37,716 bases of DNA. Source: a virus (taxonomy: Duplodnaviria; Heunggongvirae; Uroviricota; Caudoviricetes). The notes under the pieces were generated by a model, which was given only the letters and a program-made list of their open reading frames with translations, searched no databases and was not told where the DNA came from. A program made the position numbers and the translations under genes. The stretch is taken from IMG/VR virus record IMGVR_UViG_643692022_000005. One strand, given 5' to 3'. Of the stretch, positions 1,979 through 34,722 are shown piece after piece. The stretch's first letter is position 1. The number at the start of each line of letters is the position of its first letter.

Positions 1979-2340
1979 TATGCTCCAGCCTCCGGTGCTT
2001 TTGGCATTACTGCCCAGTGAGTGATATTGACGTTTTCAAGGTCCCCGACCTGAAATGTCCACTGCCATTCTCCGGTTTCTTTTTGTCCCCAGGTGTACCA
2101 GAGAGAACGCCAGCCAATTAGCCAGCCTTCTCCGTTAGCATCGAATAACAAAACACTTTCATTTGCTGGTGGCAGTTCAGTTGACACTGGTATTACTTTG
2201 TTTTCCTGTGCTGCACATTTAGCTTCAAGCGCATCGAATTTACGCACTAGGTATTCAGCATCTGTTTCATTTACTTTCAGATCTCGCGGTACACATCTCC
2301 CACGAAGAAACCCTTCCATTTCGAAAACATTCATGCGCAT
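1978..2340 (-). CDS. DUF551-like phage protein
   Basis: 120-aa ORF with a Trp-rich C-terminal half ending ...NITHWAVMPKAPE, which resembles the DUF551 family from memory. Confidence 0.6.
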   Translation of the reverse strand: MRMNVFEMEGFLRGRCVPRDLKVNETDAEYLVRKFDALEAKCAAQENKVIPVSTELPPANESVLLFDANGEGWLIGWRSLWYTWGQKETGEWQWTFQVGDLENVNITHWAVMPKAPEAGA

Positions 2341-2867
2341 TTGCGTAACTCCGATAACTCGTTAAAGCGTTCCATAAACATCCCGTAGGCATGGCCCGGA
2401 GCCAGTGGAATCACGTTGAACATCTCTGTTGCCGGGATACCTTCCAGTACAGGCCAGAAAGAGCCATCATCAAGCCCGAGATCGCGGCGTTCGGTTGCCA
2501 GCATGATGAGATCGGCATATTTCACGGGCGTACTCATAACTGGGGGTAACCCGTATTTCTCACGGATTACGGCGTCTATTTTTTCTTCCATTTGTTTATA
2601 GTCAGGAAGAAGGCGTTTCAGTGGTGCGGGAATGTCCTGGCAATACGCTTCTGTTGCATCATGCATTAACGCTTCAAAAGCAAATTCCTGCGGCACCAGC
2701 TGGCTGCAAAGAACCGCATGTTGGGCGACGCTGTAGAAGTGCGAAAGATGACCGGCAAAGCGACAGATATTTGAAAGGGAAACCGCGATATCGTTAATAT
2801 CGATGTCGTCTTTATTTATCCTGTCATAATAAAAATGCTTCCCGGAAAAAGTTTTAATAAATGACAT
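2331..2867 (-). CDS. HD-domain phosphohydrolase (YfdR-like 5-prime-deoxynucleotidase)
   Basis: HD-type motifs (H...HD...E: SVAQHAVLCSQL, MHDATEAY). Start placed at the internal ATG (MSFIKTF) preceded by GGAG at 6-nt spacing; the track ORF runs to 2894 from a GTG. Confidence 0.75.
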   Translation of the reverse strand: MSFIKTFSGKHFYYDRINKDDIDINDIAVSLSNICRFAGHLSHFYSVAQHAVLCSQLVPQEFAFEALMHDATEAYCQDIPAPLKRLLPDYKQMEEKIDAVIREKYGLPPVMSTPVKYADLIMLATERRDLGLDDGSFWPVLEGIPATEMFNVIPLAPGHAYGMFMERFNELSELRKCA

Positions 2868-2994
2868 TTTGCTCTCCACGTATATGCGCTGCACCGCGCT
2901 GAATTCTGGTAAAAAGAATCCCTCACCATCCGGCGATTATTGAGTAAATTACGTTTCCATAAATGCCCCCGCAGGGGCATTTGCAGTAATGAAA

Positions 2995-4384: not shown

Positions 4385-4648
4385 AAAAAGGACGGTACCA
4401 GCCGGAAGCAAGGGTACAAACTGGTACCGCCAGGACTACACACAGCATAAAGTTGTGGTGCCGGGTGCCTCCCGGTGCCTGGCGAAGGTTGCACACCAGA
4501 CGGGTGGGTATCCACAGAAGGTCGACTGTCAGCCTCAACCTTAACCCGCGTGCGCTGAGCCGCATTCACCACAACGCTAAGAATTCTCTCTGGTTGAAAA
4601 TACTTAGCTGTTATGTGCCTGCTTTTAGCCACATCAGGCGAGGTGGAC

Positions 4649-4700
4649 CTGGTTATTCCCCAACAACAAGGATTCGGTTAATCTGGTTATCCCCAACAAC
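4649..4700 (+). repeat. Two direct repeats (CTGGTTAT(T)CCCCAACAAC) upstream of the 4716 gene
   Basis: Copies at 4649-4667 and 4683-4700 differ by one inserted T; the second ends 15 bp before the ATG. Each contains a TTATCCCCA-like core one or two mismatches from a DnaA-box consensus. Confidence 0.6.
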
Positions 4701-4715
4701 GCAAAAGGAAAAGAA

Positions 4716-5150
4716 ATGTCCGGTAATATCTATACGCTGTACAAATCCCACTGTGAAAATGTTGGAAAGTATCGGGGCATTGAAATCAGTGGGGTAGTGT
4801 CATCAGTCGAAATAAGCAAAGTTGAATCAAGGGCAACATTACTTACTCTTCTGGACCTTGTCTTACATGAGCACCGGAAGAAATTCGGCACTCCCTATAA
4901 TCAGTTGAATGGGAAAAAGGCTCTGGTTCACCTTATTCTGATGAAGCATCACTGGATGCCAAAACAGATTAATGAGATGAAATTTGATGAACTTCTTCTT
5001 TCAATTCAGGATGAACTCACACTTGATAAAATAAGCGTAACCGCCCAGAAATTTTTAGATTATCGAGACTGGAGATCACAAATTCATCACTTTGATGATT
5101 TTGACGAAAATGAATGGGATCCTAATTTGTCTGCACAATATCTAAAGTAA
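4716..5150 (+). CDS. Hypothetical protein (AT-rich cargo gene)
   Basis: 144-aa ORF in AT-rich DNA, where a long ORF is unlikely by chance; purine-rich RBS-like stretch (AAAAGGAAAAG) upstream. No recognised motif. Opposite strand to the flanking early operon. Confidence 0.6.
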   Translation: MSGNIYTLYKSHCENVGKYRGIEISGVVSSVEISKVESRATLLTLLDLVLHEHRKKFGTPYNQLNGKKALVHLILMKHHWMPKQINEMKFDELLLSIQDELTLDKISVTAQKFLDYRDWRSQIHHFDDFDENEWDPNLSAQYLK

Positions 5151-5328
5151 CATCCTGTGATAAAACCGTGATTTCCTGATCCAGTTTTTTTAAGGAGTCT
5201 ATTGTTTCCTGTCGATAAGACAGCACTTCACGAAGCTGGTTTATAGCTGCCAGCTTCTTTGCCATCCACTCGTAAATTTCCTCATTTGTGTATCCGGGCG
5301 CGACGATTTTTGGTTCTGTTTTGTGCAT
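5122..5328 (-). CDS. Small hypothetical protein (68 aa, predicted helical/coiled-coil)
   Basis: Internal ATG (MHKTEPKIV) preceded by a strong RBS GAGGAGGTG at 5-nt spacing. Converges on and overlaps the 3-prime end of the 4716-5150 gene by 29 nt. Confidence 0.5.
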   Translation of the reverse strand: MHKTEPKIVAPGYTNEEIYEWMAKKLAAINQLREVLSYRQETIDSLKKLDQEITVLSQDVTLDIVQTN

Positions 5329-5373
5329 TTCACACCTCCTCAAGTTATCAGTTACTTGTTGATGGGGACCAGA

Positions 5374-5385
5374 TTGTTAAAGAGC
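5374..5385 (-). promoter_or_regulatory. boxA-like antitermination element (GCTCTTTAACAA on the minus strand)
   Basis: Exact 12-mer match to the core of the rrn/lambdoid boxA consensus as I recall it (TGCTCTTTAACAA), in the orientation of a leftward early transcript and directly after a hairpin. Confidence 0.4.
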
Positions 5386-5387
5386 TA

Positions 5388-5410
5388 AGCGTCCTGTAGG
5401 GCGCTTTTTT
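5388..5410 (+). terminator. Rho-independent terminator (plus-strand reading)
   Basis: Stem AGCGTCC/GGGCGCT (7 bp, one G-U) with loop TGTA, followed by TTTTTT. On the minus strand the same hairpin precedes the boxA-like element instead. Confidence 0.55.
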
Positions 5411-5593
5411 GTTGCTAACGAATCATCCTGGACTTCATATGCCCCAGGCGGCTACTTCGTGGGCGTCCTGCCTGTTCGTTGTTTTAACATCTTTAAGTTG
5501 TAATTCAGTTGTGGTTTTGAATGTTGTCAACAACTTTATGTGGTTTGAACGAGTAGCCAAGGAGTGCAAGGATTATCAAAAAAAGGAGGTTGT
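5411..5593. promoter_or_regulatory. Divergent promoter/operator-like region (candidate leftward early promoter and rightward cargo promoter)
   Basis: Perfect TTGACA -35 hexamer on the minus strand (top 5525-5530) with a weak -10 about 17 bp downstream; clustered GTTGT/ACAAC motifs like those in the cI-cro intergenic region; AGGAGG RBS at 5583-5588. Confidence 0.4.
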
Positions 5594-6484
5594 ATGGAAG
5601 ACGCGCTTTACGCTTTTAATTACACACAGAACCGGGACAAGTTATTTGCTAACTTGATTAGCATCATTGATGGAATCATTGCAGATGGAGTTGTCCGTGA
5701 AGAGGAGGTTCTTTACTTAGATACATGGTTACTTGAAGCAAAGCAGATTATCAATAATGGAGTTATAAAAAGTCTATCAGCACGGGTGTCGGATATTCTT
5801 GCGGATGGAATAATCACATCAGAAGAACGTGATGACCTTAAAAATAGCCTTCTCCAAATACAGAGGGAAATTCTTGATATCCCTGAAATTGATTTTTACT
5901 CCAAGGATGTAGATGTCCATTTACTTAATGGACTATGTAAAGGATTAATTGCTGATCGGAACTTAACTCAAGAAGAAATAAGATATCTTAATTGGTGGCT
6001 TGAGCAAAATGGAGCTTTGAAGAACAACTACCCAGGAAAAAAACTTTATGCACTTGTAAAGGAAATTCTTAAAGATGGGGTTATTACTGAAGATGAGAGT
6101 TTAACTCTACATAAGGCATTAGTAGACTTCACAGGATGTGACTTGGAAAGTGGGGTGGTGGATGGTTTGGCGACCAGGCTGCCTATTGATGTAGGGGCTT
6201 CGATAGAGTTAGAGGGTAAAACCTATTGTCTTACAGGCACTTTTGTTGCAGGAAAGAGAGCCGTAGTTGAAAATTTGATTAAAAATGCTGGTGGGAACAT
6301 CAGTAGTGGAATTACTCAAAAGTTGGATTTTTTAGTAATTGGGACGCTTTCCTCCCGTGATTGGAAATTCTCAAGTCACGGAAGGAAGATCGAAAAAGCT
6401 ATATCTTATAGGGATGATAATGGTGCAAAACTTAAAATTATTTCTGAAGAAATGCTTTTCGATGCATTACCAAGTTCGCGATGA
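5594..6484 (+). CDS. Protein with four TerB-like helical repeats and a C-terminal BRCT-like domain (candidate defence/exclusion gene)
   Basis: Start at the ATG preceded by AGGAGG (the track ORF begins 30 nt earlier). Four repeats of a D-G-[VI]-[VI]-x-x-E-E helical motif; C-terminus GKTYCLTGTF...AGGNISSGITQKLDFLVIG matches the BRCT pattern of NAD-dependent ligases. AT-rich; 3-prime end overlaps the cI 3-prime end. Confidence 0.75.
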   Translation: MEDALYAFNYTQNRDKLFANLISIIDGIIADGVVREEEVLYLDTWLLEAKQIINNGVIKSLSARVSDILADGIITSEERDDLKNSLLQIQREILDIPEIDFYSKDVDVHLLNGLCKGLIADRNLTQEEIRYLNWWLEQNGALKNNYPGKKLYALVKEILKDGVITEDESLTLHKALVDFTGCDLESGVVDGLATRLPIDVGASIELEGKTYCLTGTFVAGKRAVVENLIKNAGGNISSGITQKLDFLVIGTLSSRDWKFSSHGRKIEKAISYRDDNGAKLKIISEEMLFDALPSSR

Positions 6485-7153
6485 CCAGAATACCCTACCT
6501 ATAACATGAATTCTGGCTCGTCTATCTTCAAAGGTGAGTATTTCATCTGGGTACTCATCTTTGTTGAAGCTTCTAAGAATCAAGCCACCGTCAGGTAAGT
6601 TGATAAGTATTTTAACCCTTAGCAATACACCATCTCGTACGGCATAAAGATCGCCATCACGAATAGGAACGGTTTGAGAAATATCAACGGCAACAAGATC
6701 TCCATTATTGAGAACCGGTAATAAACTGTTCCCCCATATTTTTACGATCTTGGCATTAGATGCACATACGCCAGATTTTCTCAAATCTGCTCTTCTTAAC
6801 GGAAACCAGTCAATAGCTGATTCAACTATTTCAGCCAGACATCCGTTACCTGCCGATAACTCGACATCTAAAACAGGAATGTTTACGAAAATATCGGGGT
6901 CTAATGCGGTGCTTTCTGCTTCTTTTACAACAAGATCAGGTATGGATGCGTTGTCTTCAATACCAAGTTGTAACCACTTTTGTGATACACCTAAAACTTT
7001 TGCAATTTCTTTAATTTTGCGCGGTTGTAGAGTTTCGCCATTCTCTATTTTGGCTACAGATTGTTGTGAAAGTCCAATTTTTTCAGCTAGTTGAGCTTGG
7101 CTCATGCCAGCTATCTCTCTACCTATCTTTAATCGTTCTGCCAGTGTTTTCAC
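6467..7153 (-). CDS. cI: CI-like repressor (HTH plus S24 LexA-like peptidase domain)
   Basis: N-terminal HTH (MSQAQLAEKIGLSQQSVAKIENGET) and a C-terminal S24-like autoproteolysis domain (GNSLLPVLNNGDLVAVD...); divergent from a Cro-like gene; GTG start. Confidence 0.88.
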   Translation of the reverse strand: MKTLAERLKIGREIAGMSQAQLAEKIGLSQQSVAKIENGETLQPRKIKEIAKVLGVSQKWLQLGIEDNASIPDLVVKEAESTALDPDIFVNIPVLDVELSAGNGCLAEIVESAIDWFPLRRADLRKSGVCASNAKIVKIWGNSLLPVLNNGDLVAVDISQTVPIRDGDLYAVRDGVLLRVKILINLPDGGLILRSFNKDEYPDEILTFEDRRARIHVIGRVFWSSRTW

Positions 7154-7288
7154 AACATATCCCTCTCTTTTTTGATGAGGTTACAACTTTATGTTTTAGC
7201 TTTCCAACACCTAAAAGTTGTGATAAAAGTTGTTAATGTTGTATTCTTGCAACTCGTAACAACTTAACTACCTAAAAAGGAGAAAGCT
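7154..7288. promoter_or_regulatory. Immunity-region operator/promoter (OR-like) between cI and cro
   Basis: 135-bp divergent intergenic region with repeated ACAACTT/AAGTTGT half-sites in inverted orientation (7183, 7215, 7228, 7259) and AAGGAG before cro. Confidence 0.6.
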
Positions 7289-7537
7289 ATGACACCTGAG
7301 CAATTAGCCTTATCGGAGGCAATCGCTCTGGCTGGTGGTCAATCAGAATTGGCTCGGAAGCTCACAGCCAGCAGCGGTCATTTAGTAAAGCAACAACATG
7401 TCTGGAACTGGTTGAACAGAGAAAAGCGTCCCCCTGCAAAGCTCTCGATATTCATTGAAAAGACCACTGGCATATCAAAAGAAAAATTACGTCCAGATAT
7501 TTTTCAAAAGATTAAAGATTCATCAGATGAAAAGTAA
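7289..7537 (+). CDS. cro: Cro-like (YdaS-like) HTH regulator
   Basis: 82-aa ORF divergent from cI, with HTH (QSELARKLTASSGHLVKQ) and AAGGAG RBS. Confidence 0.8.
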   Translation: MTPEQLALSEAIALAGGQSELARKLTASSGHLVKQQHVWNWLNREKRPPAKLSIFIEKTTGISKEKLRPDIFQKIKDSSDEK

Positions 7538-8466: not shown

Positions 8467-9397
8467 ATTAACCGGCTATGTATGGGATGGTTGCGCAGCG
8501 TCAGGCATGAAATTATCCAGCGTGGCAATTATGGCCCGCCTGGCTGATTTCAGTAATGACGAAGGTGTGTGCTGGCCATCAATTGAAACCATTGCCCGTC
8601 AGATTGGCGCGGGGATGAGTACCGTCAGAACGGCTATCGCACGGCTGGAAGCAGAAGGCTGGTTAACGCGTAAGGCGCGTCGCCAGGGTAACCGCAATGC
8701 GTCGAATGTTTATCAGCTTAACGTTGCGAAGCTTCAGGCAGCGGCATTTTCTCAACTGTCAGATTCTGACCCGTCAAAATCTGACGCATCAAAATCTGAC
8801 CCGTCAAAATTTGATGCGTCGAAATCTGGCAAAAAAGCGGGTTTTCACCCGTCAGAATCTGGCGGGGATCCGTCAGTAAAATCAAAACATGATCCGTCAG
8901 ATAAAAAACCTTCTCGTCCGGACGCTTCGCAACCGGACACGCAGACGGCTGAACAGGATTTTTTAACTCGCCATCCTGATGCGGTTGTATTCAGCCCTAA
9001 AAAGCGCCAGTGGGGAACGCAGGATGATTTGACCTGTGCACAGTGGCTCTGGAAAAAAATCATTGCCCTGTACGAGCAGGCTGCCGAATGTGACGGCGAG
9101 GTGGTTCGTCCCAAAGAACCGAACTGGACAGCCTGGGCAAACGAAATTCGCCTGATGTGTGTGCAGGATGGTCGTACTCACAAACAAATCTGCGAGATGT
9201 ACAGCCGCGTCAGCCGCGATCCGTTCTGGTGCCGTAACGTGCTCAGCCCGTCGAAGCTGCGGGAAAAATGGGATGAGCTTTCCCTGCGCTTATCGCCGTC
9301 CGTAAGCACGTACACCGAAAAACGCGAAGACCCGTACTTCAAATCCAGTTACGACAACGTGGACTACAGCCAGATCCCGGCAGGATTCAGGGGGTGA
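8456..9397 (+). CDS. Replication initiator (O-like, N-terminal winged-helix)
   Basis: 313-aa ORF with N-terminal winged-helix-like region; contains the iteron array, which encodes the repeat peptide SDSDPSKSDASKSDPSKFDASKSG, as the lambda O gene contains its origin. Confidence 0.7.
   Translation: MSTKLTGYVWDGCAASGMKLSSVAIMARLADFSNDEGVCWPSIETIARQIGAGMSTVRTAIARLEAEGWLTRKARRQGNRNASNVYQLNVAKLQAAAFSQLSDSDPSKSDASKSDPSKFDASKSGKKAGFHPSESGGDPSVKSKHDPSDKKPSRPDASQPDTQTAEQDFLTRHPDAVVFSPKKRQWGTQDDLTCAQWLWKKIIALYEQAAECDGEVVRPKEPNWTAWANEIRLMCVQDGRTHKQICEMYSRVSRDPFWCRNVLSPSKLREKWDELSLRLSPSVSTYTEKREDPYFKSSYDNVDYSQIPAGFRG
8760..8910. repeat. Iteron array (candidate phage replication origin) inside the initiator gene
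   Basis: Four tandem 15-bp units (TCTGACCCGTCAAAA, TCTGACGCATCAAAA, TCTGACCCGTCAAAA, TTTGATGCGTCGAAA), each with internal TGAC..GTCA dyad symmetry, then degenerate CCGTCAG copies and an A-rich stretch. Confidence 0.7.
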
Positions 9398-34147: not shown

Positions 34148-34722
34148 CAAACGATGATTACATCCGTCTGTTGTCGGCACTGCTGCCCCCCGGTCCGGCA
34201 TGGTCAGCCAGCGATCCGGCGATTGTCGGTGCGGCACCTTCATTAACCCGTGTTCATCAGCGTGCGGATGCCCTGATGCGGGAGCTGGATCCGCGCACCA
34301 CCACCGAACTGATAAATCGCTGGGAGCGTCTGTGCGGCCTGCCGGATGAATGTATTCCGGCGGGAACGCAGACCCTTCGCCAGCGTCAGCAACGGCTGGA
34401 TGCGAAGGTTAACCTGGCGGGCGGTATCAATGAGGATTTTTACCTTGCTCAGCTTGCTGCTCTGGGCAGACCAGACGCCACCATCACGCGATACGACAAA
34501 AGCACTTTCACCTGCTCATCGGCCTGTACTGACGCGGTGAATGCGCCGGAATGGCGGTATTACTGGCAGGTCAATATGCCTGCTGCCACCAACACCACCT
34601 GGATGACATGTGGTGATCCCTGTGATTCCGCGCTGCGTATCTGGGGCGATACTGTAATCGAGTGTGTGCTTAACAAACTCTGCCCTTCACATACCTACGT
34701 AATTTTTAAATATCCGGAGTAA
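34138..34722 (+). CDS. Baseplate/tail protein (Mu gp48-like)
   Basis: 194 aa, Cys-containing C-terminus, order matches the Mu R position. Confidence 0.65.

Follow-up and report, generated by a model that had tools for sequence, protein, structure and literature searches.

A putative rrn-type BoxA and a covarying leader RNA behind the early-left promoter of an SfIV/SfV-like prophage with no evident N protein

Comparison with related phages identified the window analyzed here, the whole stretch of 37,716 nucleotides, as an SfIV/SfV-like prophage of E. coli. The leader of its early-left (pL) transcript contains the 12-nt sequence GCUCUUUAACAA (5374–5385, minus strand), placed 2 nt behind a hairpin, with the first start codon 45 nt further on. 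Our preferred reading, held with moderate confidence, is that this 12-mer works as a BoxA of the rrn type within the 5′ leader of a repressor-controlled pL transcript, in a prophage of the N-less SfIV/SfV-like type. The site would most likely serve for loading of Nus factors, with an anti-Rho effect, as one part of a compound antitermination leader. The dominant conserved feature of that leader, missed by the original prediction that drew attention to this region, is a 64-nt structured RNA directly downstream of pL.

The promoter of this transcript was located on the minus strand at 5502–5530, with the −35 hexamer TTGACA at 5530–5525, a 17-nt spacer and the −10 hexamer TGAATT at 5507–5502. A simple promoter scan missed it because the −10 hexamer has no A at position 2, and with so poor a −10 sequence the transcription start near 5494 is an estimate rather than a mapped position. 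The heptamer ACAACTT occurs 10 times in the window, including four copies in the cI–cro intergenic region (7183–7265) and two around the TTGACA promoter, where OL-like half-sites at 5495–5501 (minus strand) and 5530–5536 (plus strand) bracket pL. The pL and cI–cro regions also have 8- to 15-mers in common. The ACAACTT clusters at 7183–7265 and 5495–5536 are probably repressor operator half-sites. Because the TTGACA promoter is bracketed by half-sites common to the cI–cro region, we read it as the repressor-controlled promoter pL. The minus-strand TTGACA promoter that had been predicted upstream of the boxA-like site is thus present at 5530–5525, and the leftward early transcription attributed to it agrees with a pL under repressor control. 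A palindrome, ACAtCTTTAAGTTGT, was also seen at 5487–5501 among the ACAACTT operator sites.

The surrounding genes are arranged as an immunity region followed by an insert-bearing early-left operon. The cI-like repressor gene occupies 6467–7153 on the minus strand and the cro-like gene 7289–7537 on the plus strand. Between pL and cI, and convergent with cI, lies a plus-strand gene for a BRCT-domain protein (phrog_3989, 5564–6484); its location in the rexAB position of lambda suggests that it may be a cargo or defence gene expressed in the lysogen. The first gene of the pL operon (5122–5328, minus strand) encodes 68 amino acids behind the ribosome-binding site GAGGAGG and gives a full-length match to phrog_1744 (E 4.8e-34). 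Leftward of it the operon contains an embedded convergent gene of the ECs1072 family (phrog_5286, 4716–5150, plus strand) and continues to the excisionase and integrase genes. Beyond its first gene, the pL transcript has to traverse 556 nt of untranslated sequence antisense to this convergent gene (4566–5121, minus strand), in which the longest sense ORF does not exceed 54 codons and a 78-nt segment beginning at ~4833 is C-rich and G-poor (24 C, 8 G, C/G = 3).

Sequence reading and pattern search both identified GCTCTTTAACAA at 5374–5385 on the minus strand as the sole exact copy in the window, in agreement with the original prediction. The chance expectation for an exact 12-mer, recomputed as ~0.0045 in 2 × 37.7 kb, is close to the 0.005 proposed before, and the comparative enrichment reported below also argues for more than chance. 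The consensus for gamma-proteobacterial BoxA elements is GYTCTTTAANA (PMC5725501), and GCTCTTTAACA at 5385–5375 (minus strand) fits it. The element is on the transcribed strand, in the leader, ~110 nt downstream of pL when the start is estimated as above. No boxC-like GU-rich element follows it, the downstream sequence being AAUCUGGUCCCCAUCAACAAG, nothing like UGUGUGGG; a BoxA sought in the right operon of the window was not found. In a single-sequence minimum free energy (MFE) fold of 5366–5500 (minus strand), the 5′ leader AGAUGUUAAA pairs with the boxA region UUUAACAAUCU, an arrangement that could occlude BoxA. The 5′ leader of that fold recurs in a related leader (L048) with a boxA-less downstream module, so the pairing is probably a coincidence.

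The hairpin next to BoxA, AAGCGTCC-TGTA-GGGCGCTT at 5387–5406, consists of eight pairs including five G-C pairs and is followed by TTTTGTTG. It was present as predicted, with an extent slightly larger than the 5388–5404 first assigned to it. On the plus strand the 8-bp stem, TGTA loop and T-run form an intrinsic terminator (5387–5410) for convergent transcription, and the terminator scan called the hairpin on that strand only. The predicted fold of the window hairpin is −11.5 kcal/mol on the plus strand versus −7.5 kcal/mol on the minus strand, and across 10 sequence variants the plus-strand values were −7.4 to −15.8 kcal/mol with a U-run, compared to −1.8 to −7.6 kcal/mol on the minus strand. 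The leftward hairpin is weak because a G.U pair of the plus-strand RNA becomes a C.A mismatch, kept in 10/10 variants, and the leftward RNA contains no clean U-tract. The longest ORF within the first 700 nt was on the opposite strand in 13/13 distinct hairpin-plus-boxA contexts versus 27/65 boxA-less leaders, the latter score marking this as a crude test. Since the hairpin always faces a convergent ORF and is strong on the plus strand, the most fitting reading is that it terminates the convergent gene, its strength in the pL transcript being deliberately kept low. The earlier view of the plus-strand hairpin and T-run as a terminator is upheld by the scan call, the strand-asymmetric fold and the convergent ORF. 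Its assignment to the gene starting at 4716 holds to the extent that transcripts of this gene would end there; the gene itself stops 237 nt short of the hairpin, and the minus-strand gene 5122–5328 lies between.

To place the 12-mer in a comparative frame, ~96–100 related leaders were gathered from phage records and IMG/VR, and matches to GYTCTTTAANA were counted relative to the leader RNA. On the transcript strand we found 15 matches within the first 200 nt downstream (18.7 kb, 0.80/kb), five between 200 and 1000 nt (0.07/kb) and none between 1 and 3 kb; the same strand upstream contained none in 242 kb, and the opposite strand had four (0.0044/kb). BoxA orientation was identical across all related leaders, always on the early-transcript strand. 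Because common descent links many of the hairpin-plus-boxA copies, the number of independent arrangements behind the enrichment is ~4–5, not 15, and by these counts the enrichment is still far above background. Module placement was assessed with a scan anchored on the hairpin, not on boxA: 19 of the 20 hairpin-plus-boxA modules follow the leader RNA, or a diverged version of it, on the same strand at a distance of no more than 500 nt. In modules of the window type the core GCUCUUUAA stays constant, and the hairpin loop and the spacer of 1–3 nt vary; a mutated boxA was seen in a single copy (L217) among ~30 distinct modules. The sequence past ..AAUCUGG differs among modules, indicating that the module ends at a mosaic junction. 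Hairpins of the window type without the 12-mer are common elsewhere in phage DNA, and two leaders (L087 and L091) have boxA ~350 nt downstream without the hairpin. The 12-mer is therefore conserved in related phages, the comparison on which the original prediction had staked itself, in a strand-specific and leader-located manner. Judged by this distribution, it has the properties expected of a genuine BoxA in the leftward RNA. Separately, we observed in L091, at 2408–2419 (minus strand), the order hairpin-AU-GCUCUUUAACAA after a small leftward ORF, in the operon divergent from the leader RNA (the cro side). The position resembles that of nutR and the phage is apparently N-less, which suggests that BoxA serves both early operons in some relatives.

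Sites of the rrn type were also found to head the pre-early (first-step-transfer) operons of T5-like phages, in some cases preceded at 2 nt by a hairpin. There are three plus-strand boxA copies in PR1 (L008), a T5-like Providencia phage, at 2076, 2524 and 2934, each just after a sigma-70 promoter. In T5 itself (L360) a boxA at 4977–4988 (minus strand) stands at the head of a pre-early operon in the order promoter, GGCGG..CCGCC, AC, GCUCUUUAAAAA. An annotated CDS, T5.009, overlaps this site and may be spurious. We met no pairing of boxA and T5 in the literature searched, of which coverage was incomplete. As a side observation, the pL operon of the window encodes a deoxyribonucleoside 5′-monophosphate phosphatase (phrog_318, 2331–2894, minus strand), whose family carries the same function annotation as the T5 pre-early gene dmp; this gene is a second parallel between the early-left operon and T5-type pre-early regions.

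The 64-nt leader RNA (5417–5480, minus strand) is composed of three helices: a closing stem P1 (5480–5475/5422–5417), P2 (5472–5470/5464–5462) and P3 (5448–5444/5431–5427). Its conserved location is the space without annotation that separates the repressor gene from the first gene of the early-left operon in SfV, SfII, ST64B, ZF40, mEp237, mEp460, SPN3UB, Klebsiella, Pantoea and Yersinia phages, as well as in the Aeromonas phage pAEv1818 and in T5-like Providencia phages including PR1. In total it occurs in ~90 distinct phage contexts, and the gene that comes first after it varies among the phages. Each phage has one copy, in the left operon only, and the right operon of the window has no second one. 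In an alignment of 86 sequences, 94.4% of cells were paired, versus at most 42% when the partners were slid by 1–3 columns, and 10 of 14 pairs showed changes on both sides. P1 and P3 covary strongly, P3 closing a conserved loop GGCRYAYGAA; the invariance of P2 (GGC/GCC) leaves covariation nothing to test there. The junction GCCCACGAAGUAGC (5464–5451) is likewise invariant in sequences that were collected by that very 14-mer, and it varies in diverged copies found by other routes. Searching the window with a covariance model of the RNA gave a single match, at 96 bits (E 2e-30). Of 84 contexts, 74% had a sigma-70 site scoring 9/12 or better in the 70 nt preceding the RNA, versus 1.2% of control windows, with the −10 hexamer ending a median of 15 nt before P1; the position of pL in the window agrees with that in related phages.

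This RNA appears to belong to an undescribed family. Rfam 15 gave no family over it in 5100–5700, only chance-level plus-strand matches driven by the terminator, and an Rfam scan of five related phages returned nothing overlapping it. Single-sequence MFE folds of the window leader produced a wrong pairing, CAGGC/GCCUG, with unremarkable z-scores; P1 and P3 emerged only from comparative data, and RNAalifold alone recovered P3 only. Hammerhead, kink-turn and CsrA-site readings of the junction, tried by eye, found no consistent fit and were set aside. When species genomes were scanned with the 14-mer, chance accounted for all but 5 of the 120 matches, and the genuine ones were confined to Enterobacteriaceae; complete copies were found only in Enterobacteriaceae in this sample of species genomes. 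A decayed copy together with a second conserved domain was detected in the Rac prophage of E. coli K-12 (L359, ~8517–8600, minus strand), between racR and ydaG. It follows a TTGACA-17-TATAGT promoter, and the annotated sRNA KilS further downstream is a different element. The second domain, ..GCGCAGYAGGU..AACGUUCCGC, a small hairpin and GAUAAGG, comes after the leader RNA in phages of the mEp237, SPN3UB, pAEv1818 and Rac types (L006 2065–2140, L007 2055–2130, L009, L120, L176 and L359 ~8470–8520, minus strand); it is absent from the window and stands alone after a promoter in L176. In ST64B (L003), a sub-threshold Rfam match to STnc100 (2091–2209, minus strand; 35 bits versus a gathering score of 47) was seen on the strand of the leader RNA, ~280 nt past it.

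Among known antitermination systems, the rrn leaders resemble the BoxA part of the window. The rrn antiterminator consists of a boxB hairpin, boxA and boxC, and the rRNA transcription antitermination complex contains NusB/E, NusA, NusG, SuhB and S4. The P2 leader of E. coli rrnG reads GCCGCU..AGCGGC-ACU-GCUCUUUAACAA, and the window has its hairpin, UA and GCUCUUUAACAA. The 12-nt core is thus identical and promoter-proximal in both, the order hairpin, 2–3 nt, boxA is common to them, and no phage protein is apparently required. The window site differs from its rrn counterpart in being on a phage mRNA operon without boxC, in being preceded by the separate 64-nt RNA, and in having a hairpin that is mismatched in the leader RNA strand and is really the terminator of the opposite strand. 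With the nutL sites of lambda and P22, which need N, the window shares the position in the pL-operon leader before the first gene, BoxA and a presumed dependence on host Nus factors. However, boxA precedes boxB there and the hairpin precedes boxA here, without a GNRA-like boxB loop; there is also no matching right-operon site and no detectable N-like arginine-rich protein. A PHROG family scan of the 20 early-region proteins gave no match to an N-type antiterminator family, in keeping with the original prediction that no such protein is evident. A boxB role for the window hairpin is unlikely, given its weakness in the leftward RNA. Taken together, the hairpin 5′ of boxA as in rrn, the lack of an N match and the weak leftward hairpin speak against the nut-like site that had been suggested.

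The 64-nt RNA invites comparison with the put RNAs of HK022 and HK639, which are also cis-acting RNAs of ~65–70 nt right after pL in N-less lambdoid phages with differing downstream genes. The put RNAs are formed by two tandem stem-loops, whereas in the 64-nt RNA a closing stem encloses two hairpins. At first a shared CAGGAUGA hinted at put family membership, but this was excluded by the covariance model and by the way the helices pair; the model gave no match at HK022 putL, at putR or at the HK639 putL-like RNA (34187–34312). Stand-alone BoxA elements of CRISPR arrays and suhB, studied by the Wade laboratory, have in common with the window the consensus GYTCTTTAANA and, presumably, reliance on host Nus factors alone and a Rho-prone transcript. 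They differ from the window element, which belongs to the early operon of a phage and has a reverse-facing terminator and a conserved leader RNA coupled to it. At CRISPR arrays, stand-alone BoxA blocks Rho (PMC7665894). One indirect hint comes from mEp237, which contains the leader RNA, has Q annotated and not N, and belongs to a collection described as Nus-dependent.

Several other readings of these elements were weighed. The 12-mer might have no function in RNA and be conserved as a passive part of a mobile terminator cassette; in favor of this, the plus-strand terminator function of the hairpin is clear, the hairpin accompanies the 12-mer in most copies, and a convergent ORF accompanies the pair in 13/13 contexts. 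We nevertheless regard this as improbable, because the same type of hairpin is common without the 12-mer, the 12-mer occurs behind promoters without this hairpin in PR1, T5 and L087/L091, its orientation is always that of the early transcript, and we know of no reason for invariance just upstream of an intrinsic terminator. The reverse attribution, by which the hairpin is a bidirectional terminator acting as an attenuator that stops leftward pL transcripts unless they are antiterminated, is very doubtful, the least probable of the readings. A moderately U-rich UUAGCUCUUU does follow the hairpin in the minus-strand RNA, yet the fold on that strand reaches only −7.5 kcal/mol, the C.A mismatch is kept in all 10 variants and the terminator scan makes no minus-strand call.

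Two further readings were weighed as well. BoxA at suhB acts negatively, which counts against presuming a fixed positive sign for the window element. Nus factors bound 45 nt upstream could accordingly repress translation of the 68-aa gene and thereby provoke Rho termination, so that the pL operon would be damped. The gene is real (phrog_1744), and the site falls within the 50-nt distance from BoxA to start codon used to nominate regulated genes (PMC5725501). Several other contexts, however, have the 3′ end of a convergent ORF after the module and no start codon near, and T5-like phages place BoxA at the head of long operons; we think a damping role improbable, to about the same degree as a passive 12-mer. 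Unlikely too, if a little less so, is that the 64-nt RNA alone gives processive antitermination in the manner of put, with BoxA dispensable or vestigial. BoxA is indeed missing in most members of the family, and the RNA forms one conserved structural unit that lies close to a promoter in 74% of contexts. Approximately 80% of phages with the RNA have no nearby BoxA, so that BoxA is not essential to the action of the RNA and the two elements are separable. Against a vestigial BoxA stand the invariance of its core across variants, with one mutated copy (L217), its independent recurrence, and the fact that the 64-nt RNA, whose own role is a prediction, is not a put homologue.

In the favored reading, that of a functional BoxA in a compound leader, prophage induction would let RNA polymerase start near 5494 and transcribe the three-helix RNA (5480–5417) first. 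The structure of this RNA is supported by covariation, and we infer, as the weakest link of the model, that it is a second elongation-modifying module, put-like in role, as an analogue and not a homologue of put. The weak hairpin would be transcribed next, followed by GCUCUUUAACAA. NusB–NusE (S10) would bind the BoxA RNA and, together with NusA, NusG and SuhB, render the polymerase resistant to Rho, as in rrn and CRISPR-array leaders. Once resistant, the polymerase could get through the 556 untranslated nucleotides and on to the remaining genes of the operon, as far as xis and int. In the opposite direction, the hairpin would end transcription of the convergent gene, keeping it out of pL and the immunity region. 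We propose that terminator and BoxA together form a compact two-way insulation module. A wider possibility, which we offer tentatively and consider rather less than probable, is that the leader RNA represents a new class of processive antiterminator RNA acting in cis, only the second one, with HK022 put as the first. A large set of N-less temperate phages from Enterobacterales and Aeromonas, together with some T5-like phages, would rely on it, either by itself or in combination with a stand-alone BoxA of the rrn type through which the host Nus complex is recruited.

Antitermination by BoxA and Nus factors and reverse-facing terminators are already known kinds of element. What is apparently new is the use of BoxA, seemingly without N, in a temperate-phage pL leader and at T5-type pre-early promoters. 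No paper on such N-less phage use of BoxA was found in the literature searched, its coverage being incomplete, and the SfIV genome paper treats Q antitermination only. The arrangement suggests that such phages sustain early transcription by host factors and RNA alone. If this is true, a host-type BoxA would co-opt the rRNA antitermination machinery without a phage protein, and the widespread, strongly covarying RNA outside Rfam would be a second concrete element of the leader. To our knowledge, how early transcription proceeds through the long, insert-filled operons of N-less lambdoid phages such as SfV, SfIV, ST64B, Gifsy-like phages and mEp237 is largely unexplained outside HK022. The BoxA sites of T5 pre-early operons suggest that the strategy may extend to virulent phages. 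A terminator and a BoxA set back to back would provide a way to carry a reverse gene inside an operon with both transcripts intact, an arrangement that bears on the settling of cargo and defence genes in prophages.
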